DNA from: Deltaproteobacteria bacterium
GTDB taxonomy: Bacteria > Bdellovibrionota_C > UBA2361 > JAGFJO01
NCBI GenBank assembly: GCA_024102635.1
Contig: JAGFJO010000006.1
Coordinates: forward strand, 45,909-109,908
Direction: 5' to 3'
DNA: 64,000 bases
The translations under genes and the position numbers were made by a program. The notes beneath the pieces are model-generated. The model did not search any database. It worked only from the letters and a program-made list of their open reading frames with translations, and had not been told where the DNA came from. Below, in pieces: positions 32,122 to 47,064 of the stretch (within the stretch, counting starts at the first letter, position 1; every line of letters starts with the position of its first letter).

Positions 32122-32910
32122 ATGTTGCAGCATCTCTGGAAACATAGAGAATTAACCTATCAGCTAACGAAGCGCGAAGTATTGCATCGATATCGCGGCT
32201 CGCTTCTCGGCGTCTTTTGGTCCTTCATTACCCCGCTTTTCATGCTGCTTGTATACACCTTCGTATTTGGAGTTATCTTCCGCTCCCGCTGGGGAGCCGG
32301 CACTACAAGCCAAACAGATTTTGCTTTGATACTCTTTTGCGGTCTCAGTATCTTCAGTATCTTTTCCGACATAATCGGAAGAGCTCCGGCAATTATCCTT
32401 AGCAATCCCAATTATGTGAAGAAGGTGGTTTTTCCGGTTGAGATTCTTCCCGTCACCATACTCGGCTCCAGCCTGATCCACGGAGCAATTAGCATATTAA
32501 TTCTGCTGGGAGCCGTGCTGATTATTCACGGTTCTCTGCCGCTCACGGTGCTCTTTCTTCCGATCGTCATCTTGCCGCTGCTACTGGTGTCAATCGGCCT
32601 GGCATGGTTTCTTGCCTCGTTGGGAGTTTATTTGCGGGATATAAATCAGATCGTACCTGTACTCGTTTCGGCCCTGATGTTTTTGAGCCCGATATTCTAT
32701 CCGGTATCGGTGATCCCCGAGAACCTACAGTTTCTATATTTCATAAATCCTGTGAGCTACGTGGTTGAAGACGCCAGGCAAGTGGTGATTTGGGGTAACG
32801 CCCCCAACTGGCTCTGGTGCATGATCGGAACGGGACTCGGCGCGGCAATTGCGGGGCTGGGATACGCCTGGTTCCAGAAGACTAAGAAGGGGTTTGCCGA
32901 TGTCATCTAA
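32122..32910 (+). CDS. wzm: polysaccharide ABC exporter permease (ABC-2, Wzm/KpsM type)
   Basis: Six TM segments. The first loop resembles the Wzm/TagG/KpsM families. Confidence 0.8.
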   Translation: MLQHLWKHRELTYQLTKREVLHRYRGSLLGVFWSFITPLFMLLVYTFVFGVIFRSRWGAGTTSQTDFALILFCGLSIFSIFSDIIGRAPAIILSNPNYVKKVVFPVEILPVTILGSSLIHGAISILILLGAVLIIHGSLPLTVLFLPIVILPLLLVSIGLAWFLASLGVYLRDINQIVPVLVSALMFLSPIFYPVSVIPENLQFLYFINPVSYVVEDARQVVIWGNAPNWLWCMIGTGLGAAIAGLGYAWFQKTKKGFADVI

Positions 32911-34270
32911 TTCGGCGCTGTCACTGAATTCCATCAGCAAGTGTTACCGCTTATTTGCAAAGCCTCAGGACAGGCTTAAGCAGATGATATTCCGCGGACG
33001 CCGCACTTACTTCCGGGAATTTTGGGCGCTAAAGGATGTGTCTTTTGAGGTTGCACCCGGCGAATGCATTGGAATAGTAGGAAGAAACGGCGCCGGAAAG
33101 TCAACCTTACTGCAGATTATTACCGGCGTAATTCCGCCGACAAGCGGGTCAGTACGCGTAGCAGGCAAAGTGGCTGCCCTTCTTGAACTAGGCACCGGAT
33201 TCAATCCTGAATTCACCGGCCGCGAGAATGTGTTTCTAAATGGGTCTATACTCGGCTTCACTCAGGAGCAAGTCCGCGAGAAATACGACGACATAGCAAG
33301 CTTTGCTGATATAGGAGCATTCATCGATCAGCCTGTCAAAACCTATTCAAGCGGTATGATGGTGCGGCTCGCTTTTGCGGTCGCAGCTCACGTAGATCCG
33401 GATATCCTTATTATCGACGAAGCTCTATCGGTCGGAGACGCTAAGTTTCAGGCTAAGTGTTTCAGGAAGTTTCAAGAGTTTAGGGACAATAGGAAAACAA
33501 TTCTTTTTGTTACGCATGCTGTTGAACAGGTTATACGCCATTGTGACAGGGCGCTGTTAATAGAAGACGGCTCACTAATAACGCAGGGAGAGCCGAAACA
33601 GGTAGCTAATACCTACTTGAGCTTGCTCTTCGACACCAAGCCCATAGATAAGCAAGAGAGCCAGGTTGATGCAAAGCCTCAAGGGAGCGAGGTTAACGGC
33701 CTACGTGCCGGCTCCAACGGAAGCGCTTCTGCATCTCAGCTTGATTTGTTTCTCTCAGGAGCGGCTGGAGACGATAGCTTTCCAAGTCGCCCAGGATACA
33801 ACCGAGCGGAGTATCGCTGGGGGTCACGGGAGGCGGAACTTGTAGACTATATGCTGTGCAACGACAAACAGTGGCACATAAACCATTTCTCTTCCGAAGA
33901 CAGGATCACATTGTACCTAAAGGTGCGCTTCAACCGTAATGTGGCCAAACCGATATACGGCCTTACACTGAAAACACCTGATGGAGTTACGATCTACGGC
34001 TCTAACTCCCGGGATTCGGCGGGAGACCGAATTTTCAGGCACCAGAGCAGCGGGGCGGTGGCTGTAGTGAGCTTTTCCCTGCGAGCCGGCTTGACTTCAG
34101 GTCATTACTTTATATCGCTCGGTGTCGCAGAAGAGGTTAATGACGAGGCCCTGCCGCTCGACAGGCGCTATGACGTTCTGGAGATATACATCACTAATCC
34201 CCACAAAGTTTATGGAATTGCTGATTTAGGCCTGAAGTTTTGCGAAATTGAGAGCCTGTCCCCCGAATAA
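32900..34270 (+). CDS. wzt: polysaccharide ABC exporter ATP-binding protein with C-terminal glycan-terminus-binding-like domain (Wzt)
   Basis: Walker A GRNGAGKST, signature YSSGMMVRLAFA, Walker B LIIDEALSVGD. After a Ser/Gly linker there is a beta-rich C-terminal domain of about 150 aa. Start taken at MSSNSALS, overlapping the wzm stop. Confidence 0.8.
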   Translation: MSSNSALSLNSISKCYRLFAKPQDRLKQMIFRGRRTYFREFWALKDVSFEVAPGECIGIVGRNGAGKSTLLQIITGVIPPTSGSVRVAGKVAALLELGTGFNPEFTGRENVFLNGSILGFTQEQVREKYDDIASFADIGAFIDQPVKTYSSGMMVRLAFAVAAHVDPDILIIDEALSVGDAKFQAKCFRKFQEFRDNRKTILFVTHAVEQVIRHCDRALLIEDGSLITQGEPKQVANTYLSLLFDTKPIDKQESQVDAKPQGSEVNGLRAGSNGSASASQLDLFLSGAAGDDSFPSRPGYNRAEYRWGSREAELVDYMLCNDKQWHINHFSSEDRITLYLKVRFNRNVAKPIYGLTLKTPDGVTIYGSNSRDSAGDRIFRHQSSGAVAVVSFSLRAGLTSGHYFISLGVAEEVNDEALPLDRRYDVLEIYITNPHKVYGIADLGLKFCEIESLSPE

Positions 34271-34379: not shown

Positions 34380-35438
34380 GTGACGAGCATAGAGATAAGC
34401 AACCTATCAAAAAGCTTCGGCTCCGCACGGGTGCTCGCCAATGTCTCAATAAAGATCGCCAGTGGAGAGTTTTGCTGCCTTGTTGGACCGTCCGGTTGCG
34501 GCAAGACGACTTTACTGCGGCTGGTTGCCGGATTCATCACGGGCGAAAGCGGCGATATTCTTTTCGACGGCAAGTCGGTGAAGGACCTGCCGGTGGCCGA
34601 TCGAGAGATCGGCTTTGTATTCCAAAACTATGCGTTATGGCCGCACATGACCGCTTATCAGAACGTGCTCTTCGGCCTGGAAGCTCGCAAGGTTTTGAAA
34701 AACGAACGAGCACCACGGGCTCACGCTGCTCTAACCTCCGTGCAGATGGATTTATTCAGAAACCGGTACCCGCATGAGCTTTCGGGCGGGCAGCAGCAGC
34801 GAGTAGCTATCGCAAGAGCACTAGCGCTCAAGCCGAAGCTGCTGCTGTTGGATGAACCTTTATCCAATTTGGACACTAAGCTTAGGGAGGAACTTAGAGG
34901 CGTTATCTCTGATTTGCAGCGTGAGCATTCGATTACCACCATTTATGTAACTCACGATCAACATGATGCTTTGGTTTTGGCGGACAAACTGGCGGTGCTG
35001 AGTGAGGGGCGGATAATTCAAAGCGGTACTCCTGAAAGCGTTTATGAAAGCCCTCTCAGCGCTGCAGTTGCCGGATTCATAGGCAGCGCCAATTTTATCC
35101 AGGGCGAGATAGTTTCCATTACGCCGCTCAAGGTTCGCTGCGCCTTCGGTGTGCTCGATGTTGCCAGCTCAATTAGCGATGCAAAGATTGGACACGAAGT
35201 AAAGCTGGCTATCAGACCGTCTTACGTTTCGCTTACTCCCACCGGCGAATGCAGTAATCGTCTCGAGGGTATCGTAATGGAAAATCGCTACTTCGGGCCC
35301 ACCAGAAGAATCGTACTTGAAAGCCAGGCCGGCGCTCTTGTGGCTGAATGTCCTGCCGAACAGGCCGCGCATATACAAACTGGGCAAAAGATATCGATTG
35401 CCCTTCCGCCCCACCGCCTAGTGGCTTTAGCGGCATGA
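34380..35438 (+). CDS. ABC importer ATP-binding protein with C-terminal TOBE domain (Fe3+/thiamine/polyamine type)
   Basis: GTG start. Walker A GPSGCGKTT, signature LSGGQQQRVAIARAL, Walker B LLLDEPLSNLD. Confidence 0.85.
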   Translation: MTSIEISNLSKSFGSARVLANVSIKIASGEFCCLVGPSGCGKTTLLRLVAGFITGESGDILFDGKSVKDLPVADREIGFVFQNYALWPHMTAYQNVLFGLEARKVLKNERAPRAHAALTSVQMDLFRNRYPHELSGGQQQRVAIARALALKPKLLLLDEPLSNLDTKLREELRGVISDLQREHSITTIYVTHDQHDALVLADKLAVLSEGRIIQSGTPESVYESPLSAAVAGFIGSANFIQGEIVSITPLKVRCAFGVLDVASSISDAKIGHEVKLAIRPSYVSLTPTGECSNRLEGIVMENRYFGPTRRIVLESQAGALVAECPAEQAAHIQTGQKISIALPPHRLVALAA

Positions 35439-37096
35439 AAATTTCGCATGCCCTGATAATCCTTGTTTGCGCCGCGTTTCTGGCAGCCTTCCTGTTCTAT
35501 CCGCTTATCTACTCTCTTCGGGCAGCCTTTATATCGGGAGGAGATATATCCTTTGAGCCCTTCGGATTGCTGCTGCAAGATCCGGAGTTCTATCATCTGC
35601 TTTTCAATTCGATAAACCTTGCATTTCTCTCTACCTTCTTGGCGTGCTTGCTGGCACTCCCGCTGGCAGTCGTAATGGAGCGCGTCTCCCTTCCGAGAAA
35701 AAAGATATTTCATATCATTTTATTGTTTCCCTTAATTCTTCCGCCGTTTGTCGGAGCAATCGGCATTCGCAAACTGTTTGCTCGATTTGGGCCGATTAAT
35801 CTCTCCCTCATGCACTCCGACATCATAAGCGAGCCGATTAATTGGCTAACAGAGTCCGGGCTATCGGGAATAGCAATCGTCGAGGCGCTACATTTGTACC
35901 CAATTGTGTACTTGAACTTGCGCGCGTCATTACGGGCGGCCGATCCCGCCCTCGATGAAGCGGCCATAAGTGTAGGAGCCGGCAAGCTGCGCCGCTTCTT
36001 CAGAATCACGGTACCTATGCTTGCACCCGGTTTTTTCTCGGGAGCGGTGCTTGCTTGGATTTGGGCCTTTACCGATCTCGGCACTCCTCTTGTTTTCGAC
36101 TATCAACAGCTACTCCCAGCGAGGCTCTTTCAGATCGCTGACGAGATACACTCCAACCCGCTTGGATTCTGTATTGTCATTATGATGCTTTTGGTAATTG
36201 CTGCCATGCTGCTCCTGTCAAAGGCGGCAGTTGGGATCGAACTCTACCGGCCTTTAGCAAATTCAGGGCGACCGGCACAGCAAGCTTCGCTATCACCACT
36301 GTTACAAGGAGTGGTCATTTTGCTGCTCTCGGCCGCATCGCTCATTGTCATTCTACCGCACGCGGCGGTAATACTTACATCTTTAGCCGATAAGTGGTTC
36401 ATTACAGTAATTCCTGAGGAGCTTGGGCTCGAAGCATATGTCAGTGTGGTGTCTCATCCCTTAACGGCTAGCAGCATTAGAAATAGTCTTTTCCTTAGTA
36501 GCGCAAGCGCCGTTCTCGACTTCATTCTTGGAATATGTCTCGCCTGGCTCATAACCAGAAGAAGGCGTAAATGGACAGGGTGGCTCGACGCCGCAGCGAT
36601 GGCCCCACTGGCAGTACCCGGTATAATTATTTCTTTTGGATACCTGGGCGGCTTCTCTAATACCTCTCTCGATCCGCGCCTTTCTCCCTTCCCGCTTCTA
36701 ATTATCGGATATGCGGTGCGGCGCCTGCCATTCATGGTTCGTTCGGCGGCGGCAGGCTTTCAGCAGGCCTCCCCTCAGCTCGAGGAAGCCGCCTATAGCG
36801 TTGGCGCTTCTGCCGTTATGACGGCAAGACGCGTAACGTTTCCTATCATGAAGGCACATCTTCTGACCGGAGCGATTCTTTGCTTTTGTTTTGCGATGCT
36901 GGAAGTGAGTGAGAGCTTGATACTTGCGGTCCAAGAGCATCACTATCCGATGACGAAAGCCATGTACTCGCTCCTCTCCCGGCCCGACGGCGAGAGCACT
37001 GCCAGCGCGCTTGGAGTGATAGGCATGCTCGTGTTAGCGGCCGGAATGCTTGCTGCGGCAAGGCTAACTGCCAAGAAGGAAAAGATGGAGCCATGA
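35435..37096 (+). CDS. ABC importer permease, duplicated (two MetI-like domains; FbpB/ThiP type)
   Basis: About 12 TM segments with two EAA-like loops. Start chosen at MKISHALI, whose ATG overlaps the ATPase TGA. Confidence 0.8.
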   Translation: MKISHALIILVCAAFLAAFLFYPLIYSLRAAFISGGDISFEPFGLLLQDPEFYHLLFNSINLAFLSTFLACLLALPLAVVMERVSLPRKKIFHIILLFPLILPPFVGAIGIRKLFARFGPINLSLMHSDIISEPINWLTESGLSGIAIVEALHLYPIVYLNLRASLRAADPALDEAAISVGAGKLRRFFRITVPMLAPGFFSGAVLAWIWAFTDLGTPLVFDYQQLLPARLFQIADEIHSNPLGFCIVIMMLLVIAAMLLLSKAAVGIELYRPLANSGRPAQQASLSPLLQGVVILLLSAASLIVILPHAAVILTSLADKWFITVIPEELGLEAYVSVVSHPLTASSIRNSLFLSSASAVLDFILGICLAWLITRRRRKWTGWLDAAAMAPLAVPGIIISFGYLGGFSNTSLDPRLSPFPLLIIGYAVRRLPFMVRSAAAGFQQASPQLEEAAYSVGASAVMTARRVTFPIMKAHLLTGAILCFCFAMLEVSESLILAVQEHHYPMTKAMYSLLSRPDGESTASALGVIGMLVLAAGMLAAARLTAKKEKMEP

Positions 37097-38436
37097 AGAG
37101 CTTTATATTGCTTTTGTGTATCTTGGTGTTTGGTCTCCAGCCTAGCCATGCCGAAGACAAGTTGATAATCGTCTCACCCCACTGGGAAGGAATCCGTTAC
37201 GAAATGGGGAGGGCTTTCAATGAGCACCGCCGAAAGATCGGAGCACCGTCCGTAAAGATTAGCTGGCTGGACGTTGGTGGTACTTCAGAGATACTGCGAT
37301 ATCTCCAATCGGAGTACATGCAGACGCCGGAGGGCGTGCAGATTGATATGCTTTTCGGCGGAGGAATCGAACCGTTCTTGCAGCTCAAAGCCAGCGGCTT
37401 ACTGGAGAGACCTGGGCTGCATGGTGAGGAGTTGGCGGGAGTAGCGCACATGCTGGGAGGAGTTCCTCTTCATGACCCTGATGGTTACTACTATGCTCCG
37501 GTGATATCGGCATTCGGCTTGCTCTGCAATCTCGAGGTACTGAGGACAATCGGCGTTTCGATCCCTGCGAAATGGAGCGATCTGACGGGTGCCGAATACC
37601 GCGGCTGGCTCAGTTCCGCCGACCCGCGTAAGAGCGGTAGTACTCATATGTTCTATGAGATATTGCTGCAAGCTTACGGCTGGGAGCAGGGATGGAAAAT
37701 GATTTTTAATATTGCCGGCAACATCAACTCGTTTTCCTCTCATTCGTCTCAGGTTACGCAGGATGTTATTGGCGGAGAAACAGCATGTGGTTTCGCCATA
37801 GACTCGCAAGCCTGGGCGCAGATCGAACGTTTCGGCTCGGACAAACTTGCTTTCATAGTACCTTCTGATGCCAGTTTCGCTAACGGAGATAGCGCCGCCA
37901 TACTGAAGGGAGCACCGAACTATCAGCTGGCAAGCGATTTTCTCTCGTTCCTCCTTTCCGAAGCGGCTCAAAAGGTCTGGATGTATCGGCCCACATCACC
38001 GGGAGGACCGTCGAAGTATGAACTGGCAAGACTGGGGGTAAGGCCCTCTCTGTACTCTGATCTGCAGCAACAGTCATCCATTTTACTTAACCCATTTTCG
38101 TGGGATAGTAGCCTGCCTTATGATCACAAACTTGGCGCCGCCCGCTGGGGGCTTCTTAACGAGCTGTTAGGGACCTTTGTGCTGACCGCCAAGCACTACA
38201 ATCTAGCTTACTCGGGAAAGTTGCCGGTAAATGAAGAGCAGGCAATGAGTCTCATAAGCTCCGGAGATTGGCACGATCAGGGCCTGCGCCGCAATATCGT
38301 CGCCGGTTGGCGATCCGGCATTTTTAGAGAGATTGATGAAGGTTCGTTGTTTTGGCTCAATGCCGCTCCAACAATAACATTCATTCTATTATGTGTTCTT
38401 GCCATAGTGGTTAGGGCTCGCCGTTTTGGCCGTTAG
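37093..38436 (+). CDS. ABC substrate-binding protein (family 1, Fe3+-type) with an unusual C-terminal TM segment
   Basis: Signal peptide, then a periplasmic binding fold. The last about 30 aa are hydrophobic (AAPTITFILLCVLAIVV) followed by RARRFGR. Confidence 0.65.
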   Translation: MKSFILLLCILVFGLQPSHAEDKLIIVSPHWEGIRYEMGRAFNEHRRKIGAPSVKISWLDVGGTSEILRYLQSEYMQTPEGVQIDMLFGGGIEPFLQLKASGLLERPGLHGEELAGVAHMLGGVPLHDPDGYYYAPVISAFGLLCNLEVLRTIGVSIPAKWSDLTGAEYRGWLSSADPRKSGSTHMFYEILLQAYGWEQGWKMIFNIAGNINSFSSHSSQVTQDVIGGETACGFAIDSQAWAQIERFGSDKLAFIVPSDASFANGDSAAILKGAPNYQLASDFLSFLLSEAAQKVWMYRPTSPGGPSKYELARLGVRPSLYSDLQQQSSILLNPFSWDSSLPYDHKLGAARWGLLNELLGTFVLTAKHYNLAYSGKLPVNEEQAMSLISSGDWHDQGLRRNIVAGWRSGIFREIDEGSLFWLNAAPTITFILLCVLAIVVRARRFGR

Positions 38437-38449
38437 CTTCACAAAAAAA

Positions 38450-41101
38450 TCATATCCCGATCTCTCCACCGCTTGCACGCTTCAAGTAACCCTTTGCCAA
38501 GATAAAGCATAATACAGCCAGTGTTATTAGTGACACGGTCTTGGTGACGTAAAGAAACGAGGGCTGGAATGCCAGCAGCACTGTGCTTTCACCTTCGATT
38601 AAAGGCACTCCCAAAAATGCATAATTAAAGATGTAGGTAGGAACTGGTTCGCCGTTGACGTAAGCCCTCCATGCTGGATCATAGGGCTGCAACAGCACAA
38701 GATACGAGCTTCTTTCAGTGTGCACGGATATCTCATAGACGCCCTCGCCGGCACGGCGAAGATCCAGCTTCAAACTGTCTCCTTTTGAAGGTCCTTCGGG
38801 TAAAAGCGCGCGTTGATCCTCGATTAGCACCGCCTCCTCAAAGTCCATGTTCTCAAGGCGTTTGATTGCATTTGAAGGGTGCGGTTCATACACCGACGAT
38901 GCGGCAAGAAATGCCGGCCGAAACTGGAGCGATCGTTTAAGCACAGACACGCCTCCCGATAACACGACTTTCCACTCTTTTCCGGCTATCAACTCAGCGA
39001 CCGAGCGGGGGGCGACAATATGAGTCACTCTTAGAAGATCTAATAGAGGTGAATTATATTCAAAACTAGCCGATGAAAAGCTATTACCAGAAGACTTAAG
39101 CCGAGCATCGAGTGCCTCGACAATCTCCCGCAATCTGGCGGGAAGCGGATTCGCAGGATCAATAGTGGATATGCCGTACGCTTTTGCAGCGTGAACTGGA
39201 AACACGCCGTCCAAACTGACGAGCCTAGAACGGCCCTGCCCGTCACTCTTGAGAGCCGAGATCAGTTCGGTCTGGGGGAAATTGAGTGCATTCGGCAGGT
39301 AAGGAATCAAGGGGCTGTTTACGACTAGGAGATCCAGAAACGAAGCAAGGACTATCATCTTACCGGAAATACCTCCCCCTTCCCTGGCAAAGGAAAAAAA
39401 CCCGATCAATAGAAGAGATGCTAGGATAAGCGCCACTTGTACCATGAAACGAAATCCCGACTGCGGGTGATCGCTATCCATTTGAAGAGCCGTGGGATCA
39501 ACAAAAAAAGCAGTGGACGGCAAGACCGCCAGCAATAAGATTAAAATCGGAAACAAGATTTGGCGCTTTTCGGCACTCCCATTTAGCACTGCATCAAGGC
39601 CAGCACCCGATCCTATCGCCAACAAAAAGGTAAGGAGTCCAGCGATGAGCTGAGAATCCCCCAATCCGAGAATTGAGATGACACGCGAGTTTCTCGCTCC
39701 ACCAACATCAAACGCAAGCATGCAAATGATTGAGAACGCAGCCAAGAAAGAGATAGAAAGCCGCCGAGGCCGAGATAGAAGCGCTGATAAGAAAAGTACG
39801 AGGGGAATAATTCCAATGTATATGGTATTGACCTGCGGTCCGCCGTCCAGCTGAGGGAACACCGGCATGGCCGGAGAGAAGTTGAGCTGTAGAGACTCCC
39901 CGGTAAAAGCAGCAATGTTCGCTCCCGCATGCACCGCCGGCCCTAGGGAAGGAACGATCGCTGCCGCCAGCAGCAACAAGGCCCCACACAGGCCGGCAAA
40001 CAAATAGCCTGCATGCCTAATACGCGCCGCCCAAAGCTTCTGCGCCGCCTGCAGCCGCCACAAAGCAAATACTGCCGAACACAGCAGCATGCCCCACCCG
40101 AAGCGGGGCACACAAAGTGAGAGATAAACCGCCAGGGTGAGCAGCGGAACTAAATAGACCGTGCCCCGCTTGGTGCACCGCTCAATCAAGAAAAGAAGCA
40201 TCGGCAGGAAGCAGATCCCTGTGAGCGCAAGGTTAAACAAAGTAGCGCATGAAAATGCAAAGGCTGTTGCCGCCAGAAGCGATGCCACATGCGAAGCTCG
40301 CCAGGCGCGGGCGAGTAGATAGGTGAAAACCGCCGCCATTAGCGCCTTTGCAAAAAATGCCGCCGTCAAGCCCCAACCCGGGCCGAGCAAGACCGCCAGC
40401 CATGCATCCGGTGAAAAGGAGTGCCTCATTAGCTGGTCCGGGTATCCCGATAAGAAGAGCGCAGTATCAGCAAGAGTAAATACCCCGGCCTCGGTAACTT
40501 CGTTGAAGAAATGATAGTAGCTCGACCAAAGCTGCGACAACTCATCGGTCACTAGGGGACCGGCAACCGCTTGATGCACACCCTGTGCCGCGAATGCCGG
40601 GAACCTATAAATATATGAAAGAGGACTTATGGTTTGCCCTTGAAATACCGGATGAAAGAATAGCGCCGCAAAAAGAAAAATCGCCCAAAACGCCCATGGT
40701 GAAGGTCTAACAGGCAGCACATGGCGCCATAGCTGCATTTCGAAAATGCAGGCCGCTATAGTAAAAAAGGCAACTAGCCAAGCGCATCCTTCCAACAGCG
40801 ACTCGAATGGGATCAACAACGCCGCTATAAATGCTGCGCTCAGGAAACGGCGCTCATAAAAAACCTCAAGAAAAGAAGCGACGCCGCGGCGGGGCGAGAC
40901 AACATGCAGCAGTCCGAAGGCATAAAGGGCGGCTGTTCCGATTGGAATTAAGCATAGCACCATCAACAAAAGCAATCGCTGGATCAGATCGGGAGTTCCA
41001 ATAACCGGTGCCGGCAGCAAAACAGATATGGCTCTAATGGCCCAAGGAAGCCCGCACAAGAAATAGAGCAGAGAGGCGGACGGAGAAGATCTTTTGTCCA
41101 T
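38450..41101 (-). CDS. large polytopic membrane protein, YfhO-like / GT-C fold glycosyltransferase candidate
   Basis: 883 aa. At least 13 TM helices span the first ~560 residues, followed by a ~300-aa soluble C-terminal domain. Architecture is that of the YfhO family. Assignment is by topology only. Confidence 0.5.
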   Translation of the reverse strand: MDKRSSPSASLLYFLCGLPWAIRAISVLLPAPVIGTPDLIQRLLLLMVLCLIPIGTAALYAFGLLHVVSPRRGVASFLEVFYERRFLSAAFIAALLIPFESLLEGCAWLVAFFTIAACIFEMQLWRHVLPVRPSPWAFWAIFLFAALFFHPVFQGQTISPLSYIYRFPAFAAQGVHQAVAGPLVTDELSQLWSSYYHFFNEVTEAGVFTLADTALFLSGYPDQLMRHSFSPDAWLAVLLGPGWGLTAAFFAKALMAAVFTYLLARAWRASHVASLLAATAFAFSCATLFNLALTGICFLPMLLFLIERCTKRGTVYLVPLLTLAVYLSLCVPRFGWGMLLCSAVFALWRLQAAQKLWAARIRHAGYLFAGLCGALLLLAAAIVPSLGPAVHAGANIAAFTGESLQLNFSPAMPVFPQLDGGPQVNTIYIGIIPLVLFLSALLSRPRRLSISFLAAFSIICMLAFDVGGARNSRVISILGLGDSQLIAGLLTFLLAIGSGAGLDAVLNGSAEKRQILFPILILLLAVLPSTAFFVDPTALQMDSDHPQSGFRFMVQVALILASLLLIGFFSFAREGGGISGKMIVLASFLDLLVVNSPLIPYLPNALNFPQTELISALKSDGQGRSRLVSLDGVFPVHAAKAYGISTIDPANPLPARLREIVEALDARLKSSGNSFSSASFEYNSPLLDLLRVTHIVAPRSVAELIAGKEWKVVLSGGVSVLKRSLQFRPAFLAASSVYEPHPSNAIKRLENMDFEEAVLIEDQRALLPEGPSKGDSLKLDLRRAGEGVYEISVHTERSSYLVLLQPYDPAWRAYVNGEPVPTYIFNYAFLGVPLIEGESTVLLAFQPSFLYVTKTVSLITLAVLCFILAKGYLKRASGGEIGI

Positions 41102-41256: not shown

Positions 41257-42030
41257 ATGCCTGCCCCTAACGCTTCAAAGCACTTGCCATTAGTAAGCAT
41301 AATAGTAAGAACGGTCGACCGTCCCTACTACCTGCGCGAGTGCCTCACGAGTTTGCTCGTGCAGGACTACCCTAATATTGAAATCATCATCGTAAACGAC
41401 GGGGGAGAGAGCGTGAGTGCCCTGGTCGAGGAATTGGGCCTCCCGTTCCGGCACCAACTTATCGAGCTGAAGGAGAATCGAGGCCGATCGGAGTGTGGAA
41501 ATATCGGTCTTGATCATGCGAGCGGAAAGTACATCGGCTTTATCGATGATGATGACATCTTCTACTCTTTTCACATTTCGACCCTTGTATATAAGCTGAT
41601 CAACTCCAACTACAAGGTGGTCTATTCCGACGGACTGCAAGCCCGGCAGATAAAATGCCCATTCAACGATAAGATGTACTCGACGGTGGAACTTACCTTG
41701 GTGTTATCGGAAGAGTTCGACTTCCAGGATCTTCTTACGCGCAACTACATTCCGATTCTTTGCGCCCTTTTTGACCGATGCTGCATTGAAGAAGGCATTA
41801 GGTTCGACACCTCAATGGACGTACTGGAAGACTGGGATTTTTGGATACGTATAGCAAGGCACTACGACTTTGCCCATTTGAAGCAGATCACCTGTGAATA
41901 CCGCTATCGCTCCGACGGCTCGAATACGGTAGGCCAGCTGGATCATGTTTGGGAATGGTGCCGCAATCACATAAAACATAAGTATTCCATCTTAAGAAAG
42001 GGGCGGGTTAATATGGAGCTGGCAAGCTAG
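41257..42030 (+). CDS. glycosyltransferase family 2
   Basis: VSIIVRTVDRPYYLRECLTSLLVQDYPNIEIIIVNDGG and a DDD motif. Confidence 0.8.
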   Translation: MPAPNASKHLPLVSIIVRTVDRPYYLRECLTSLLVQDYPNIEIIIVNDGGESVSALVEELGLPFRHQLIELKENRGRSECGNIGLDHASGKYIGFIDDDDIFYSFHISTLVYKLINSNYKVVYSDGLQARQIKCPFNDKMYSTVELTLVLSEEFDFQDLLTRNYIPILCALFDRCCIEEGIRFDTSMDVLEDWDFWIRIARHYDFAHLKQITCEYRYRSDGSNTVGQLDHVWEWCRNHIKHKYSILRKGRVNMELAS

Positions 42031-42039
42031 GGAAGGACT

Positions 42040-42840
42040 ATGGGGGATGCTAAAGTTGCATTTGACTTCAACAAGATGACGGTCGAAGAGCAGGAAGCTG
42101 CTATTCAGAAGGTTGTTCAACTGCTTGCAGGTAAGTCGAGCGTTCTATGCATCGGAGCTTCCGCATTAAGGCTTGCCGAGACGCTGGCGGCCTACGAGTC
42201 GCGCCGAGTAACGTTACTCACTGACAACAGCGACTTCATATCCACCGATCAAAGCAGTTCGGTGCGTATCCTAGTTGAGCCGCTTGCTTCAGACAGCTTT
42301 CTATCACGCTTTACGCCCGATGAATTTGATGCGGTAGTGCTAACCGATCCTCCACTTAGCAGCAACACCGTCACCAGCAAGCTCCCGTCGCTACTGACCT
42401 TCTTCACCGGGGCATTGGTCGTATCTATTCCGGAGCTAATCACCGAGGAGCAGGCAATCATAAGAGAGCAGGCACTAGAGATTGAGAGACTTAAGAAGGT
42501 TCTGCGGGTGCGGGAGGAAACGATCTCTTGGTACTCGAAGCGCTTAAGGGAGCATCTAGTTAGTCATTACAAGCTTGAGGGCACACATGCAGAGCGCAAG
42601 CGCGAACATGAATTAAGCAGTGAACTTGAACGAAAGAACCAAGAGTACTCTGCGCTGCTCGCTGACCGCGATCGCATCAAGGACTATGCCGACCGGCTGT
42701 CGCGATATTCCGCCGATCATCTGCCTTTGATTCTGCGCTATCCTGTCAAGGCTCTCATTGCTCTGTGGGCATACGGCCCGCTAGAGCCGATTCGAATCAT
42801 CAGAAAAAAAAAATCTATAAAAAGCCAGCCCGGCAGTTAG
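42040..42840 (+). CDS. hypothetical protein: Rossmann-like N-terminal domain plus C-terminal coiled coil
   Basis: The N-terminus has degenerate MTase-like motifs (VLCIGASA; DAVVLTDPP). Residues ~140-235 are heptad-rich coiled coil. The last codons run through an A10 tract. Confidence 0.45.
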   Translation: MGDAKVAFDFNKMTVEEQEAAIQKVVQLLAGKSSVLCIGASALRLAETLAAYESRRVTLLTDNSDFISTDQSSSVRILVEPLASDSFLSRFTPDEFDAVVLTDPPLSSNTVTSKLPSLLTFFTGALVVSIPELITEEQAIIREQALEIERLKKVLRVREETISWYSKRLREHLVSHYKLEGTHAERKREHELSSELERKNQEYSALLADRDRIKDYADRLSRYSADHLPLILRYPVKALIALWAYGPLEPIRIIRKKKSIKSQPGS

Positions 42841-43784
42841 AAGAACATCCCGCCATAGAAGTTCTCACCCTGGCTTACAACTCCGAGCGCTTTATCGATG
42901 GCTATTTCTCAGCCTTTTCTCGAATTAACTACCCCTTTGAAAAGATAACAATTCGCATCCTGGATAATCACCCGGAGCACGCCTCGTTTAGGCTGATAGA
43001 AGATCGAATCGTTAGACCCGGAACATATCCTATACGCATTGTACTAGAAAAGTCCGAGCGTAATTTGGGTTTTACGGGAGGCAATAATCTGCTTATGGAG
43101 CGGGCGCTGAATGAAACCGATTCTCCATTCGTTTTCCTCCTTAATATGGATACTCGCATCGATCCGGAATGTCTTAGCGAACTGGTTCGCTTCATGCGTG
43201 AGGATAACTCTGCCGGCATGGTGGAGGCGCTACAAGAGCCGCGGGAACATCCTAAAGCCTATGATTTGCGGACATTCGAGACCCACTGGTGCTCCGGAGG
43301 GGGCGTACTAATTGATAGACGCGCTCTCGAGGAGGTCGGACTATTTGACGATCGCTTTTTTCTATACTGCGAGGATGTAGACTTAAGCTGGCGGATGTGG
43401 ATGAACGGGTGGAGGTGCAAGATAAATCCCAAGGCCAAATATGTGCACCTGACCGAGTCAGATGACACCGGCAAGGATCTCACTAATCAGCACTACTACA
43501 GTATGCGCAACTGCTTCTTTATGCACTACAAGTACGATTCCCGGCGTGGCATCAAATCTTTGGAAGCTCTGCTGCGGGAGACGCTTGCGAAAGAGCCCGA
43601 CCCCAAGCAGCGCGCCATATTTGAACGGGCATATAATGACGCCCGGCAGCGGCGGCTTAGCTTTTTCATGGATAAACTTAAGCTTTCTCTCCTTCCTCGC
43701 AGTCAATGGATGGTTTTTGAGGGCTTTTCGTTCGAAAAACGGCGTGCGTTTATTGATGAAGCGGATCGTCGTATTATACTATGA
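42765..43784 (+). CDS. glycosyltransferase family 2 (start uncertain; overlaps upstream ORF across an A10 tract)
   Basis: GT-A fold signatures: IEVLTLAYNSERFID, FLLNMDTRIDPE, and FFLYCEDVDLSWRMWMNGW as the DxD region. Confidence 0.75.
   Translation: MGIRPARADSNHQKKKIYKKPARQLEEHPAIEVLTLAYNSERFIDGYFSAFSRINYPFEKITIRILDNHPEHASFRLIEDRIVRPGTYPIRIVLEKSERNLGFTGGNNLLMERALNETDSPFVFLLNMDTRIDPECLSELVRFMREDNSAGMVEALQEPREHPKAYDLRTFETHWCSGGGVLIDRRALEEVGLFDDRFFLYCEDVDLSWRMWMNGWRCKINPKAKYVHLTESDDTGKDLTNQHYYSMRNCFFMHYKYDSRRGIKSLEALLRETLAKEPDPKQRAIFERAYNDARQRRLSFFMDKLKLSLLPRSQWMVFEGFSFEKRRAFIDEADRRIIL
42804..42813 (+). repeat. A10 homopolymer tract at the junction/overlap of two ORFs
   Basis: Read directly from the sequence. 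Inserting one A would fuse frame 42040 with frame 42765. Confidence 0.9.
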
Positions 43785-43814: not shown

Positions 43815-44738
43815 ATGTCAGCGGGGCCCACACTCAACCTTAATTCCTTTAACCATGACATGCACTATTCGGACGGCGAATCCGAACAGCGCCTGCTCGC
43901 CCATTTTAAGGAAGCTAAGAACCCCGAAGACATTCTTTCCCTTTTAACAGATAAGCCCGATTGGCCTACTCTCTATCACCTCTCACCTGAAAGAGAGAAC
44001 CTTCTATCTTGGTTCGATTTCAACTCCGACTGCGAGCTGCTCGAGATCGGCGCCGGCTGCGGAGCTTTAACGGGGCTATTTTGCAGGCGGGCGAGGAAAG
44101 TTACGGCCGTGGAGCTGACCCGTCTTCGCGCAGAGATAATACTTCAACGGTGCAAACACTACAGCAACCTCGAGATCATCGTAGGAGATTTCAACCAGAT
44201 AGAGTTCGAGCGGCCCTTTGACTATGTGACTTGCATAGGAGTGCTTGAATATGCCGGGCGTTACGGCAGATCTGCCAGACCTTACGATCACCTGCTTGCG
44301 CGGACCAGGTCACTGCTCAAGCCGGGGGGGTGCCTTATTCTTGCAATAGAGAATAAGTTCGGTCTGAAATACTGGTCCGGCTGCCGGGAAGATCATACGG
44401 GTCGAATGTTCGAATCCATCGAAGGCTATCCCGGCAGAGATGGCGTCCAGACTTTTGACAGGGGTGAGTTAGAGCGCATGCTCAACACGGCCGGATATTC
44501 CAATCTGCAATTCTACTACCCACTGCCCGACTACAAGCTGCCGGTCGAGATCTTTTCCGACGCCTATCTTCCCTCGCCCAGACACTCGGTCAGGCCTGGC
44601 TTGCTACCTACGCCCGATCCTTCCGGCGAAAGAGCTGAACTTTTCGATGAAGCGCTTGTAATGGATAGTATTATCGGAGCCGGGCAGTTCAGCTTCTTTG
44701 CAAACTCATTTCTTGTCTTTGCAAAGGCTGTCCCATGA
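43815..44738 (+). CDS. class I SAM-dependent methyltransferase
   Basis: Motif I LEIGAGCGALTG, motif II VTAVE, and post-I/III segments. 307 aa. Confidence 0.8.
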   Translation: MSAGPTLNLNSFNHDMHYSDGESEQRLLAHFKEAKNPEDILSLLTDKPDWPTLYHLSPERENLLSWFDFNSDCELLEIGAGCGALTGLFCRRARKVTAVELTRLRAEIILQRCKHYSNLEIIVGDFNQIEFERPFDYVTCIGVLEYAGRYGRSARPYDHLLARTRSLLKPGGCLILAIENKFGLKYWSGCREDHTGRMFESIEGYPGRDGVQTFDRGELERMLNTAGYSNLQFYYPLPDYKLPVEIFSDAYLPSPRHSVRPGLLPTPDPSGERAELFDEALVMDSIIGAGQFSFFANSFLVFAKAVP

Positions 44739-45925
44739 TAATCTATTCAAGATTCAACTCCCGGCGAAGACGGCGCTTTCAGCTGCGAACCAGTGTTGAA
44801 CTGCGAGGCGACACGCTGGTGGTAAGCAAACACGCCATGCAACCAGAAGCTGTGCCGTTTTTGCAGGAGATATTGCTTGCCTACAGCAAGTTGAGCGAGC
44901 TCAAATTGCCATTTGAAATCAATAAACCTTACCGCTCCGAAAAGAATCAGATAAGTTTTGATTACATTGATGCCGACTCACTGGAGTCGCTGTTAATTGG
45001 GTGTTTGAGGCGCAAGCAGAAAGACTCATTTCTTAATATGATAGCGCACTACTGCGAACAGGTACGTTCCTTCCCTCAAGTCCCGCAGCAGTCCGACCGG
45101 CATTTCAAGTCTGTATTTGGAGATCATCCTGCATCCGAATGCGACTGCCTCTCCATAGGATGCCTTGACATAAATTTCGACAATATTCTGGCAAAAGACG
45201 ACGGCTTTGTTCTTATAGACTACGAGTGGACTTTCCCTTTCCCGATACCGGCGGACTTTATAATTTTCCGCGCCATCCTAGGTTTTTACGGCAACAACAA
45301 AAGATTACGCCCAAATTCGCTGGTACCATTAGAAGAGGCATTAAGGCATGCCGCCATAGCACCAGAAAACTTCGAATCTTTTCTGCGGATGGAGAATCGA
45401 TTCCAACAATACGTCTATGACGATATTCCAAGCACCGATACTAACGGTACAAGTGCACTGAGTGAACTCGGCAAAGATCCGCCAACCGAAGGGCCGGCCA
45501 GCCGCCTCGTTGCCATGAACGCCTACCTTCTCTTCTTGGAGAAAGAGAACGCTCTTAAGCAATCTTGGATTATGAAGCTGGAAGACAGCATAAGGGCAAA
45601 GGACTCTTGGACCTCGAAGTTGGAGCAGGACAACTCCAACTTGCGGCACTCAACCGAGGAGCTCAGTAAGCAGCTAACCGAGATCAAGGCCGGACAAGCG
45701 GCTTTATCGCCGACCAAGGTGTACGACTCGCAGCTCCAACCAGTCAAAGATCGCCTAGCTACTCTTGAATCCGAGCTGCAGCGCAAAGACGAGCTTATAG
45801 AGGATTTAGAAAAGACCGTTCTGTCAAAAAGCGAATGGATTTCAAAACTGCAAGAAGAAGTTCTGAGTTTTACATCCTCTCTTCAAGAGCTTCGGCAGCA
45901 GATGGAAGAGTTAACCAAGCGTTAA
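44735..45925 (+). CDS. protein-kinase-like (PKL) fold protein with about 150-aa C-terminal coiled coil (WbdD kinase/ruler-like)
   Basis: Beta-3 Lys context LVVSKH and a catalytic-loop-like CLDINFDNIL (HxDxxxxN pattern with C in place of H). The metal-binding IDYEW resembles the DFG/ChoK IDxE. Then a long heptad-rich C-terminus. Its ATG overlaps the TGA of the methyltransferase (ATGA). Confidence 0.55.
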   Translation: MIIYSRFNSRRRRRFQLRTSVELRGDTLVVSKHAMQPEAVPFLQEILLAYSKLSELKLPFEINKPYRSEKNQISFDYIDADSLESLLIGCLRRKQKDSFLNMIAHYCEQVRSFPQVPQQSDRHFKSVFGDHPASECDCLSIGCLDINFDNILAKDDGFVLIDYEWTFPFPIPADFIIFRAILGFYGNNKRLRPNSLVPLEEALRHAAIAPENFESFLRMENRFQQYVYDDIPSTDTNGTSALSELGKDPPTEGPASRLVAMNAYLLFLEKENALKQSWIMKLEDSIRAKDSWTSKLEQDNSNLRHSTEELSKQLTEIKAGQAALSPTKVYDSQLQPVKDRLATLESELQRKDELIEDLEKTVLSKSEWISKLQEEVLSFTSSLQELRQQMEELTKR

Positions 45926-45990
45926 CCCAGAACCTTTGTGAGTAGCGTAATGGCCCGCGATGGCTCCTTTGATATCCAGAGAGGGAGAAT

Positions 45991-47064
45991 ATGCGAATAG
46001 CATTTGCTCCATCCTCAATGCTACAGGTCTCTCCACAATCGCTCGAGAGCCGCCCTTTGGGCGGAATGGAAACGGCTCTTCTCCGGCTCTCGGAAGCCAT
46101 AGGCCAGGCCGGTCATGAGGTGATCCTCTTAACAGAAGAGCGCAACCCCCGCCTCACCGAACCGCTCCTACTGCCATATACTATGGTGGACCGATTAGGG
46201 GAACTTGATGCTGTCATTAGCGTGCGTGAATGGACTCCGCTTCTGTTGCCCTTTCAGAGCAAGCTCCGTCTTTTCTGGACCGGTGATTCATACGACCTGG
46301 CTCAAAATATAGGGATCGGAGACGCGCGGGTGATTAATAAAATTGATCACTTGCTATGTGTAAGCAATTGGCACGCGCATACCTTGAGCAGCCACTCAGG
46401 CTTTCCTGCTGAAAAGATCTATATACTTCGGAACGGCTTACATCTTCCCTATTTTGAAGGTAGCGAGACACGCCTCAGGAAACGGCTAATCTACTCTTCA
46501 ACGCCCTATAGGGGGCTCAATCTGCTTAAAGATATATACAGTGATCTAGTAAAGAACCATTCTGACCTGGAGCTGCATGTATTCTCAGGCTATCAAGTGT
46601 ACTCGCAGAATGAAAAGAATGACTTTCATCCAAAGCTCGTTCGGGAATTTGAGGCACTTTCAAGGGAAATGAGCCAACTACCCGGATGCGTAATGCACGG
46701 CAATGTAATTCAGAAAGCACTGGCGAGAGAGATGATGCGCTCGAGCATATTGGCGTATCCAAACACCTTCGAGGAAACCAGCTGCATAACGGCTATGGAA
46801 GCTCAGGCAGCAGGCTGCGTGGTTGTGACTTCCGAGCTAGGAGCGCTCCCGGAAACAGTAGGTGACCGCGGCGTGATAGTTAAAGGGAAGCCCGGCTCTC
46901 CCGAATACATGCAGGAATTCAAGTCGCAGCTGAACCGGCTGCTGACGGATGACGGCGCCTGGAACGCCCTTTCATCCGCCTCGTTAGCAGCCGCTAAGCA
47001 GTTTTCATGGAAAGCGATAGCCGAAGAATTTATTAAATTCATCGGCCATAAAGTGGGCGCCTAA
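45991..47064 (+). CDS. glycosyltransferase family 4 (GT-B, retaining)
   Basis: C-terminal EETSCITAMEAQAAGCVVVTSELGALPE (EX7E-type) motif. Confidence 0.85.
   Translation: MRIAFAPSSMLQVSPQSLESRPLGGMETALLRLSEAIGQAGHEVILLTEERNPRLTEPLLLPYTMVDRLGELDAVISVREWTPLLLPFQSKLRLFWTGDSYDLAQNIGIGDARVINKIDHLLCVSNWHAHTLSSHSGFPAEKIYILRNGLHLPYFEGSETRLRKRLIYSSTPYRGLNLLKDIYSDLVKNHSDLELHVFSGYQVYSQNEKNDFHPKLVREFEALSREMSQLPGCVMHGNVIQKALAREMMRSSILAYPNTFEETSCITAMEAQAAGCVVVTSELGALPETVGDRGVIVKGKPGSPEYMQEFKSQLNRLLTDDGAWNALSSASLAAAKQFSWKAIAEEFIKFIGHKVGA

Follow-up and report, generated by a model that had tools for sequence, protein, structure and literature searches.

The two adjacent genes that we call ORF1 and ORF2 probably encode the two halves of a glycan chain terminator of the K. 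pneumoniae O7 ORF6 N-terminal type, a methyltransferase-kinase enzyme characterised by Kelly et al. 2024 (PMC11231755). The genes lie in a 64-kb window (the whole stretch of DNA that was analysed), are split at the methyltransferase/kinase boundary and translationally coupled, and their products would most likely place on a surface polysaccharide a cap that is read by the carbohydrate-binding module (CBM) of the exporter ATPase Wzt. The first-pass annotation had proposed a methyltransferase and kinase-coiled-coil chain terminator working with a Wzm/Wzt-CBM exporter, and this is well supported by the O7 homology, the catalytic residues and the genomic linkage. It had also placed the pair in the WbdD family, an assignment that we do not uphold: neither half has detectable sequence similarity to WbdD, while both match K. 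pneumoniae O7 ORF6. The features of the locus are collected in Table 1.

Table 1. Features of the probable terminator locus and its surroundings, in window coordinates
Feature	Position	Strand	Basis
wzm, ABC-2 permease of glycan exporter	32122..32910	+	Pfam ABC2_membrane E 1.2e-32
wzt, exporter ATPase with C-terminal carbohydrate-binding module	32849..34270	+	ABC_tran 5.3e-24; Wzt_C (PF14524) 2.3e-25, residues 321-460
GT2a, family 2 glycosyltransferase, first of GT2a-CC-GT2b triad	41257..42030	+	Pfam Glycos_transf_2 1.3e-20
266-aa coiled-coil (CC) protein	42040..42840	+	no Pfam family; 268-aa homologs with same ends
A10 tract, candidate slippage / -1 frameshift site joining 266-aa ORF to GT2b	42804..42813	+	conserved homopolymer
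GT2b, family 2 glycosyltransferase, -1 frame relative to 266-aa ORF	42765..43784	+	Pfam Glyco_trans_2_3 2.5e-12
ORF1, SAM-dependent methyltransferase, 307 aa	43815..44738	+	Pfam methyltransferase families; BLASTP vs O7 ORF6
ORF2, kinase + coiled coil, 396 aa	44735..45925	+	ORF call
ORF2 kinase domain, residues 1-230	44735..45424	+	K32; catalytic loop D145-x4-N150; D162-Y-E-W165
ORF2 two long helices / coiled coil, residues 254-395	45494..45919	+	AF2; three W-x2-K-L-E/Q repeats
GT4 glycosyltransferase, 357 aa, conserved downstream partner	45991..47064	+	Pfam Glyco_transf_4 6.8e-11, Glycos_transf_1 2.4e-9

The reading frames of ORF1, ORF2 and the GT4 gene are present where the first-pass annotation had put them, and the ATGA stop/start overlap of ORF1 and ORF2 (44735-44738) is borne out on the sequence. 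The neighbour of ORF2 is a GT4 by its Glyco_transf_4 and Glycos_transf_1 matches, Wzm is recognised by its ABC2_membrane match, and the long C-terminal domain of Wzt is indeed a CBM (Pfam Wzt_C). The wzt frame is listed from TTG 32849, its likely true start being ATG 32900. Wzm and Wzt are encoded 10 kb from the terminator genes; between them and the glycosyltransferase (GT) genes stand a YfhO-like gene and an ABC importer of no relation.

ORF1 is a class I SAM methyltransferase, as had been proposed, with matches to Pfam Methyltransf_12, 25, 23 and 11 over residues 69-232 (E down to 3.8e-10). By BLASTP it is 35% identical over 302 aa to residues 24-311 of O7 ORF6 (E 5e-45), an alignment that covers the methyltransferase domain end to end. 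The O7 ORF6 query is a sequence reconstructed from the machine-read text of the paper's supplement; a protein database search with it returned no near-identical protein (best match 54%), and the O7 comparison therefore rests on this reconstructed text together with close fused relatives. Residues Y54, G79, G81, E100 and Y146 of ORF1 correspond at a constant offset to Y66, G91, G93, E112 and Y158 of O7 ORF6, the SAM-binding residues that are invariant in the fused family (alignment A2), and the motifs ENxxGLKY, PxPDYKLP and ANSFL are common to ORF1 and the O7-type family. ORF1 has both the N-terminal class I methyltransferase with these O7-type residues and the C-terminal lid, and its site is intact (GxGxG loop, E100, Y146).

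The kinase half is connected to O7 ORF6 by profile-profile comparison only: the ORF2 family profile (A1) aligns with the fused O7-type family (A2) from ORF2 residues 3-231 to template 334-547 (hhalign 98.2%, E 5.8e-14), at 17% identity in that alignment. ORF2 D145 falls on O7 ORF6 D441 in the same [FIL]D-x4-N loop, where the O7 row of the supplement alignment has FIDAVPQN at the starred position, and D441 is required by experiment for the kinase activity of ORF6-O7 (PMC11231755). D145, N150 and D162 are invariant and, with K32, make up an intact kinase site. ORF2 contains an unannotated kinase domain of ~220 aa with its catalytic Asp in this loop, and the kinase-like N-domain that had been suggested has an APH/AmiN-like kinase fold. 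Among solved structures, the kinases that act on aminoglycosides, macrolides and amicoumacin come closest to it. A "His-to-Cys" variant had also been pointed out in the catalytic loop; the Cys is there, but it carries no special meaning because the column is variable (C/L/N/D/F) in the family.

A coiled coil follows the kinase in ORF2, and about 150 aa of it had been claimed. AF2 predicts helices at residues 254-323 and 331-395, with W-x2-K-L-E/Q repeats at residues 278, 292 and 368; the claim holds best for 331-395, whose very strong heptad periodicity was equalled by none of 2000 shuffles, but less well for 254-323, where it is weak (p about 0.24). The helix runs to residue 395 of 396 with no further domain behind it. 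After the coiled coil ORF2 has neither the membrane-associated C-terminal amphipathic helix or polymerase-recruitment region of WbdD, nor what most relatives have at this place, the SxSW(K/R)xTxP(L/F)R-basic motif or GT modules. An Ig-like CBM between kinase and coiled coil is also absent from ORF2, where residues 231-253 make a short linker, modelled at low confidence and free of any beta domain; beta-rich inserts are found in several relatives.

Could the pair still be a split member of the WbdD family, with the coiled coil as a membrane-anchored molecular ruler? The order of methyltransferase, kinase and coiled coil is the same, the combined length is ~703 aa, a Wzt with CBM is present and the helical region possibly reaches ~140 residues. 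We consider this reading very unlikely, for the family to which the pair belongs already contradicts it. The chain-length ruler that had been proposed is likewise not established, ORF2 being without a WbdD-type membrane-binding C-terminus. It is unlikely that the coiled coil acts alone as a membrane-anchored ruler; most likely, its role would be to oligomerise the enzyme or to dock it to the polymerase.

The next question is "does the split occur in other loci?" That the methyltransferase and the kinase with its coiled coil are separate ORFs is correct, but the arrangement is not the exception it was taken for: among 79 related loci in species-representative genomes, 51 are split alike (gaps of -47 to +75 nt) and 22 are fused. 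Natural fusions of ORF1-like and ORF2-like domains (P0013, P0014, P0016, P0017) have their domain junction exactly at the split point in the window (...ANSFLVFA / MIIYSRF...). The literature that we consulted on such enzymes does not describe split terminators, the forms there all being fused. A Wzm homolog adjoins the terminator genes in 65 of the 79 loci and a Wzt with a homologous CBM is nearby in 64, the usual gene order being wzm-wzt-MT-kinase. A genome scan with alignment A3 finds the IDYEW-type kinase in at least 570 species genomes, a family size understated by the 17 ORF2 relatives from a word-indexed protein search; Lachnospiraceae and CPR bacteria are among the lineages in which it is common.

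These counts also bear on the proposal that the pair acts on a small molecule, as an antibiotic-type kinase plus methyltransferase, or on a protein, with the GT neighbours incidental. While the nearest solved structures are of that kind and the Pfam methyltransferase matches are generic only, we find this proposal scarcely credible in view of the linkage to Wzm and Wzt-CBM in 61-65 of the 79 loci over many phyla, the same GT cassette linked in L081-L084, and the homology to an enzyme that phosphorylates and methylates a glycan acceptor in vitro.

The cassette itself is conserved. GT2a orthologs lie directly upstream of the CC gene in L083, L084, L087, L088 and L091-L094 (E 1e-59 to 1e-126), and in L081, L082 and L083 the kinase-CC gene has a GT4 ortholog as its next gene downstream (E 1e-130). 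L083 keeps the whole module GT2a-CC-GT2b-MT-kinaseCC-GT4. In L084 the MT-kinase genes lie upstream of wzm-wzt-GT2a-CC-GT2b and in the divergent orientation, wzm-wzt being directly upstream of the GT2a/CC/GT2b cassette, and the Wzt C-domain matches with E 3e-55. Natural in-frame fusions take the forms kinase-CC-GT2b (P0265, P0269) and MTase-CC-GT2b (P0268), and the domain attached to relatives of the CC-GT2b gene is in some a methyltransferase, in others an APH-like kinase that is unrelated.

The scheme that we infer, including its methylphosphate chemistry, acceptor sugar, docking and any chain-length control, would run as follows. GT2a, GT2b and GT4 would build an undecaprenol-linked glycan in the cytoplasm. 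Like the homologous O7 enzyme in its assays, the ORF2 kinase would phosphorylate the non-reducing terminal sugar with ATP, and ORF1 would methylate the terminal phosphate with SAM. The capped end would halt elongation, the C-terminal CBM of Wzt would recognise the cap, and Wzm/Wzt would export the chain. The ORF2 coiled coil may dock to that of the 266-aa protein, itself possibly joined to GT2b by recoding. Points that weigh against the scheme are the modules missing from ORF2 (Ig-like CBM, C-terminal motif, GT modules), the distance to wzm and wzt, the low identity to the O7 kinase, the degenerate methyltransferase domains of some relatives and the use of a reconstructed O7 sequence.

Alternatively, the family may be right and the chemistry different, with a phosphate-only cap, or with direct O-methylation of a sugar hydroxyl and the kinase acting at another position or step. 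Related terminators do vary (methyl in K. pneumoniae O5, phospho-methyl in O3), and the chemistry may vary within the family itself, since some fused relatives (P0013, P0014) have degenerate methyltransferase domains; the two kinds of domain attached to CC-GT2b relatives point the same way. In the window this alternative is improbable, because the catalytic residues listed above leave both sites intact and the two genes, coupled in translation, are inherited together in 51 loci. This pattern agrees with enzymes that act one after the other on a single substrate, as the domains of ORF6-O7 do.

We turn our attention to the 266-aa protein upstream. It consists of a methyltransferase remnant (~18-131) that has lost its SAM-loop residues and, by deletion, the C-terminal half of the domain, a coiled coil (~135-232) and a conserved LPxxLxxPxKALIxxxxxGPxEPIR-KKK tail. 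It matches the MTase-CC(-GT2) proteins P0268, P0261 and P0270 (hhalign 99.8%, E 5.7e-28), and judged by its sequence it is a degenerate remnant of methyltransferase-coiled-coil-GT2 fusions. Against the O7-type fused family hhalign found nothing; we reject the ORF as an O7-type relative and assign it to this different MTase-CC-GT2 family. Its single-sequence AF2 model (pLDDT 50) is too poor for a fold search.

Near the end of this ORF, 1 kb upstream of ORF1/ORF2, is the longest homopolymer of the window, a run of ten A (A10) in a neighbourhood whose Lys codons are AAG 180 times vs AAA 98 times. All 8 of the 8 lineages compared have the exact A10 on the same Lys codons and GT2b in the -1 frame. 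Their proteins are 30-46% identical and the flanks of the tract have diverged; what is conserved is a slippery homopolymer, in length and position, with a conserved domain in the downstream frame. One gene broken by an assembly frameshift into the 266-aa ORF and GT2b is rejected as a simple explanation, since the 268-aa homologs have the same end and the tract and frame offset are found in all eight lineages. The only canonical start of GT2b in the window is GTG 42765, which lies within the 266-aa ORF and has no Shine-Dalgarno sequence. In L083, L084 and L087 no start codon precedes the conserved GT2 N-terminus, and in L083 the -1 frame opens within the tract. Programmed recoding is suggested by these facts, namely a tract exactly conserved, GT2b always in the -1 frame and a start codon sometimes absent.

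We put forward tentatively, at somewhat less than even confidence, that A10 is a programmed recoding site giving a free 266-aa protein and a ~581-aa coiled-coil-GT2b fusion, either by RNA polymerase slippage (+1 A) or by a -1 ribosomal frameshift on A_AAA_AAA. Through the coiled coil that both contain, the free protein and the fusion would assemble with each other, and this CC/GT2b assembly would be the docking site of the split methyltransferase/kinase-coiled-coil terminator. The slippage efficiency would then fix the ratio of terminator scaffold to polymerase and, with it, the glycan chain length. No conserved stable RNA structure is found in the 90 nt downstream of A10 (z from -2.4 to +0.5), and a metagenome scan for further CC-GT2b junctions matched 105 stretches, of which 0 were confirmed.

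Homopolymers are prone to sequencing and replication errors, and the tract might instead reflect faulty assembly, a lesion in a pseudogene or phase variation switched at the DNA level. Independent initiation of GT2b is possible in five lineages, because a GT2b-frame start codon lies 29-39 nt upstream of A10 in the window, L092 and L093, and a GTG 10-36 nt past it in L088 and L091. We nevertheless think an artefact, a lesion or a switch on balance unlikely. The eight-fold recurrence comes from independent assemblies (NCBI, JGI, ENA, Logan); the identical P0260 protein, from whose sequence the length of the tract follows, occurs on 23 contigs, including three from different samples; the stand-alone homologs terminate at the same place; and L083, L084 and L087 are left without a start. 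Phase variation would in addition be expected to give variable tract lengths, whereas the representative clusters hold no A11 in-frame variants, their in-frame fusions being without the tract.

What do these results mean beyond the window? The O7-type terminator family is far larger than reported, and its closest 79 relatives are mostly two coupled genes. Its nearly constant place beside a Wzt-CBM exporter provides an annotation handle for an otherwise "hypothetical" kinase, and it leads us to predict that many uncultured and Gram-positive organisms make glycans with a capped end and a controlled length. The A10 site, if the recoding is true, would put the terminator/polymerase complex under a further control, exerted by recoding; it would be, as far as our literature search found, the first recoding event described in polysaccharide assembly, and a new way of setting the stoichiometry behind chain-length control.

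Several known systems can be compared with the locus. Programmed transcriptional realignment at A9/A10 tracts is known from dnaX of Thermus thermophilus and the Chlorobi group (PMC3711429). As there, a run of 9-10 A is conserved in a coding region, and the two products would share an N-terminal part at a built-in short:long ratio; the candidate here belongs instead to a polysaccharide locus, where it would link a coiled-coil protein with a glycosyltransferase. The 266-aa protein plus GT2b also resembles the terminator-coiled-coil-polymerase fusions of the K. pneumoniae O12 WbbB type in its layout of (pseudo)terminator, coiled coil and GT2, a likeness that is strongest if the two are joined by recoding and that extends to P0265, P0268 and P0269. 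WbbB, however, has a Kdo transferase N-domain in place of the degenerate methyltransferase remnant, and is a continuous ORF, whereas the GT2 join here would depend on the A10 slippage site.

With WbdD of E. coli O9a and K. pneumoniae O3 the pair shares the order of methyltransferase, kinase and coiled coil and would share the logic, in which an ABC transporter exports the glycan and the CBM of Wzt recognises its capped end. It differs from WbdD in having no detectable sequence relationship, in the kinase subtype, and in ending at the coiled coil where WbdD has a membrane-binding C-terminus. A protein annotated as WbdD, a SAM-dependent methyltransferase, stands beside wzm, wzt-CBM and a GT in the TET operon of P. 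syringae pv. actinidiae (PMC7820976); it is annotated as O-methyltransferase only, its kinase domain being unrecognised in that paper (PMC7820976). One of the database proteins most closely related to the O7-type query is P0151 of P. syringae pv. tomato (50% identity), which hence belongs to the O7-type fused family. The TET-operon protein is fused, with 600-700 aa, while ORF1 and ORF2 are separate.

The closest comparison is with O7 ORF6, described as a second, WbdD-unrelated methylphosphate type of terminator with orthologs in a few proteobacteria and a cyanobacterium (PMC11231755). ORF6 is one polypeptide, with an Ig-like CBM (not stated to be universal) between kinase and coiled coil and with GT2 polymerase modules fused behind the coiled coil, while the window has two coupled proteins, no such CBM, an ORF2 that stops at the coiled coil, and a kinase domain of very low identity that is detectable by profile only. 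Common to both are the homologous methyltransferase with its SAM-binding residues and shared motifs (ENxxGLKY, PDYKLP, ANSFL), the ~220-aa kinase of APH/AmiN-like fold with its D-x4-N loop (D441 = ORF2 D145) and ID-x-EW motif, the coiled coil after the kinase, and the Wzm/Wzt-CBM exporter and glycosyltransferases encoded alongside.

We consider the two coupled genes ORF1 and ORF2, the methyltransferase half and the kinase-plus-coiled-coil half of a putative split glycan chain terminator, in a metagenome-assembled 'Deltaproteobacteria bacterium' (locus tag J5J00_00625). Both genes and the GT4 glycosyltransferase gene that follows are present on the plus strand as first annotated, and the ATGA overlap of ORF1 and ORF2 is real.

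Features of the terminator locus (window coordinates, or the relative's own where one is named)
Feature	Position	Strand	Description
Wzy_C (O-antigen ligase) protein	15170-16633		487 aa; E 6.8e-18
ABC-2 permease (wzm)	32122-32910		E 1.2e-32
ABC ATPase (wzt)	32849-34270		C-terminus matches Pfam Wzt_C, residues 321-460, E 2.3e-25
ABC importer, complete	34380-38436		ATPase with TOBE domain, fused double permease, SBP_bac_6 binding protein
Polytopic membrane protein	38450-41101	-	883 aa; C-terminal YfhO-family match, E 3.7e-11
266-aa ORF	42040-42840		coiled-coil (CC) gene between GT2a and GT2b
A10 tract	42804-42813		encodes KKK
ORF1	43815-44738	+	307 aa; several Pfam class I methyltransferase families, residues 69-232, E down to 3.8e-10
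ORF2	44735-45925	+	396 aa; kinase-like N-domain and coiled coil
Trp repeats of ORF2	45566-45604, 45836-45862		residues 278-290, 292-297, 368-376
GT4	45991-47064	+	357 aa; Pfam Glyco_transf_4 and Glycos_transf_1
A10 tract, L083	1450-1459
A10 tract, L084	6786-6795
A10 tract, L087	7118-7127
A10 tract, L088	5422-5431
A10 tract, L091	2158-2167
A10 tract, L092	829-838
A10 tract, L093	3401-3410

Residues 1-250 of ORF2 are covered by no Pfam, NCBIfam or PDB-sequence match. Across an alignment of 17 homologs, K32, D145, N150 and D162-Y-E-W165 are invariant; judged from sequence, K32/D145-x4-N150/D162 is the pattern of beta-3 lysine, D-x4-N catalytic loop and metal-binding Asp of APH/choline-kinase-like enzymes. 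The AlphaFold2 model made with this alignment has a mean pLDDT of 83 (mostly above 90 in the N-domain), and a Foldseek search with it finds APH(3')-Ia (E 2.5e-6), in agreement with a kinase fold. Together the invariant residues, the model and the structural match bear out the kinase-like N-domain that the first-pass annotation had proposed. The Cys that it saw in place of the catalytic-loop His lies in a column that varies (C/L/N/D/F), and therefore has no special significance.

The same annotation had placed the pair with WbdD, whose crystal structure is published (PMC3482155). Single-sequence searches of PDB sequences with ORF1 or ORF2 return no WbdD chain, and none is retrieved up to E 1-10 by profiles built from the kinase family or from the fused one; both halves match instead the type of O7 ORF6, the methyltransferase-kinase terminator of K. 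pneumoniae O7 (Kelly et al. 2024, PMC11231755). With the O7 N-terminal sequence, reconstructed from a machine-read alignment in the supplement of the O7 paper, ORF1 aligns end to end (35% identity, E 5e-45), and the residues named as SAM-binding in the O7 enzyme (Y66, G91, G93, E112 and Y158; PMC11231755) correspond to Y54, G79, G81, E100 and Y146 of ORF1. A search with the reconstructed sequence brings up over 3300 fused proteins, each about 600 aa long, and an alignment of nine of them keeps the SAM-binding residues invariant, together with D445, N450 and D463-x-E-W. When the profile of the ORF2 family is compared with that of these nine, the match has 98.2% probability (E 5.8e-14), and in it ORF2 residues 3-231 cover the kinase domain 334-547 and D145 falls on the D441/D445 position (D441 is the essential kinase Asp of O7 ORF6). 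ORF1 ends with ...FANSFLVFAKAVP and ORF2 starts with MIIYSRFNSRRRR; since the equivalents of this end and this start are contiguous in the fused proteins (...LANSFLIAA...ILAYHYSTQRKR...), the split coincides exactly with the domain boundary. There are also fused proteins nearer to ORF2 (P0013, P0014, P0016 and P0017). ORF1 and ORF2 are a split variant of the recently described, experimentally supported O7 terminator type, and the first interpretation named the right function but the wrong family.

How common is such a split? When one genome per species is scanned, at least 570 loci with an ORF2-like kinase emerge. All ORFs in the best 80 of these loci were scored with the proteins of the window, and 79 loci carry the kinase. 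A separate ORF1-like gene lies directly upstream of it in 51 of the 79 (the gap ranges from -47 to +75 nt and is frequently -4 or -8), the two are fused in 22, and in six this scoring detects no methyltransferase. Stand-alone methyltransferases of the ORF1 type are very common in their own right (more than 2300 matches at 50-60% identity). The split arrangement, unfamiliar at first reading, is in fact widespread. The majority of the analyzed genomes are Lachnospiraceae and other Clostridia, with CPR phyla, Omnitrophota, Verrucomicrobiota, spirochaetes, Gaiellales, Bdellovibrionales and Campylobacterales represented as well. Wzm is found in 65 of the 79 loci, the Wzt ATPase in 68 and a Wzt C-domain homologous to that of the window in 64, usually in the order wzm-wzt-MT-kinase. 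At the family level, the C-terminal extension of the window's Wzt matches a carbohydrate-binding module (CBM) as anticipated, and linkage to a CBM-bearing exporter provides strong independent support for the terminator function.

Within the window, an unrelated binding-protein-dependent ABC importer and a YfhO-like membrane protein lie between wzm-wzt and GT2a, both outside the conserved set of related cassettes; the insertion of the importer between wzt and the glycosyltransferase genes accounts for the 10-kb distance noted earlier. The YfhO-like protein might act in periplasmic glycan decoration. The neighborhood is kept in the closest related loci: L081 and L082 retain MT-kinaseCC-GT4, L083 retains the complete GT2a-CC-GT2b-MT-kinaseCC-GT4, and in L084 a divergently oriented MT-kinase pair adjoins wzm-wzt(CBM)-GT2a-CC-GT2b. 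The region is flanked by the trp operon and ribonucleotide reductase genes, and a Wzy_C protein encoded about 16 kb upstream of wzm fits glycan ligation to a lipid A-core acceptor.

We turn to the C-terminal part of ORF2, for which a coiled coil of about 150 aa acting as a ruler of chain length had been suggested. The model has two long helices, 254-323 and 331-395, with a low-confidence break between them. Hydrophobic periodicity at 3.5 residues is very strong in 331-395 (power 110 against 10 +/- 10 in shuffles, with 0 of 2000 shuffles reaching 110) but non-significant by the same test in 254-323; the predicted coiled coil thus stands as about 140 helical residues, only about 65 of which carry a clean heptad signal. 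The region 3' of the kinase varies among relatives, often with a beta-rich insert before the coiled coil, and at the very end relatives nearly always have either GT modules or a conserved SxSW(K/R)xTxP(L/F)R-basic motif. In most family members across phyla, whether split or fused, the coiled coil is closed by this motif, which may serve membrane or partner binding (for example in loci L017, L028, L036 and L042 and in the fused proteins P0153, P0168 and P0244). Motif and GT modules are both absent from ORF2 and from its three closest homologs, and the ORF2 chain stops where its final helix stops. A ruler needs an anchor, which ORF2 lacks; an oligomerizing or docking role would therefore be the more economical, if speculative, reading.

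The ORF2 coiled coil contains three W-x2-K-L-E/Q repeats (residues 278, 292 and 368; SWIMKLED, SWTSKLEQ and EWISKLQE), and this Trp-containing repeat is common to ORF2 and its closest homologs. The 266-aa protein has a similar element (ISWYSKRLRE), a sequence likeness that hints at a common pairing surface.

The 266-aa protein matches no Pfam family. An exhaustive HMMER search with it finds 268-aa homologs with the same ends, plus longer proteins. Among the latter, P0268 (761 aa) joins a methyltransferase, a coiled coil, a linker motif and a GT2 orthologous to GT2b, while in P0265 and P0269 (785 aa) a canonical APH-like kinase takes the place of the methyltransferase. Over its full length the 266-aa protein is homologous to the MTase-CC part (hhalign 99.8%, E 5.7e-28); it has lost the SAM loop, lacks the C-terminal methyltransferase half through deletion, and is a degenerate terminator-coiled-coil scaffold. 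Its layout is a degenerate, truncated methyltransferase remnant, then a coiled coil, then the conserved linker LPxxLxxPxKALI...GPxEPIR, of which only the last two are shared with P0265/P0269; some relatives (125-154 aa) have no N-domain at all. The APH-like domain of P0265/P0269 (HNDFTLSN...DFEF), joined via the coiled coil to a GT2b ortholog, is unrelated in sequence to both WbdD and O7-type kinases and would be a third kind of putative terminator kinase.

The most novel element of the locus is the conserved A10 junction of this gene with GT2b. The 266-aa protein stops nine codons after the A10 run, and GT2b lies in the -1 frame, its sole canonical start being a GTG inside the upstream ORF with no Shine-Dalgarno sequence. 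All eight lineages with a non-fused CC gene before GT2b (the window, L083, L084, L087, L088, L091, L092 and L093) have a run of precisely ten A's at these codons and GT2b in the -1 frame, at a protein identity of only 30-46% and with diverged tract flanks. In three of them (L083, L084 and L087) GT2b has no usable start codon, the first in its frame lying 147-292 nt past the tract, where the conserved GT2 domain has already begun; the L083 -1 frame opens inside the tract. The tract is the longest homopolymer in the 64-kb window, where Lys is encoded by AAG 180 times versus AAA 98 times. An identical protein, P0260, whose sequence fixes the tract length, is found on 23 contigs, and three of these places lie in different samples. 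Programmed transcriptional realignment has conserved A9-A10 tracts as an accepted hallmark, as in dnaX (PMC3711429). Downstream of the A10 run before GT2b there is no conserved stable RNA structure. We regard the tract as a candidate site for programmed transcriptional slippage or -1 frameshifting, and consider it reasonably probable that recoding there gives two products, the coiled-coil protein on its own and a fusion of the coiled coil with GT2b (about 581 aa). The accessible part of a comprehensive 2016 recoding review nowhere mentions glycosyltransferases or polysaccharides.

What this analysis establishes is the fold and family of the pair, its catalytic residues, the point at which it is split, and the conservation of its gene linkage. 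By homology to ORF6-O7, ORF2 would phosphorylate the non-reducing terminal sugar of the growing undecaprenol-linked chain, and ORF1 would then methylate the phosphate; the resulting methylphosphate cap would halt extension and be read by the Wzt CBM for export. More speculatively, the ORF2 coiled coil may oligomerize the enzyme and dock it onto the coiled coil of the 266-aa protein or the GT2b product. The terminator-coiled-coil-polymerase layout, which is found in single chains in O7, O12 and P0265/P0268, would here be rebuilt from parts.
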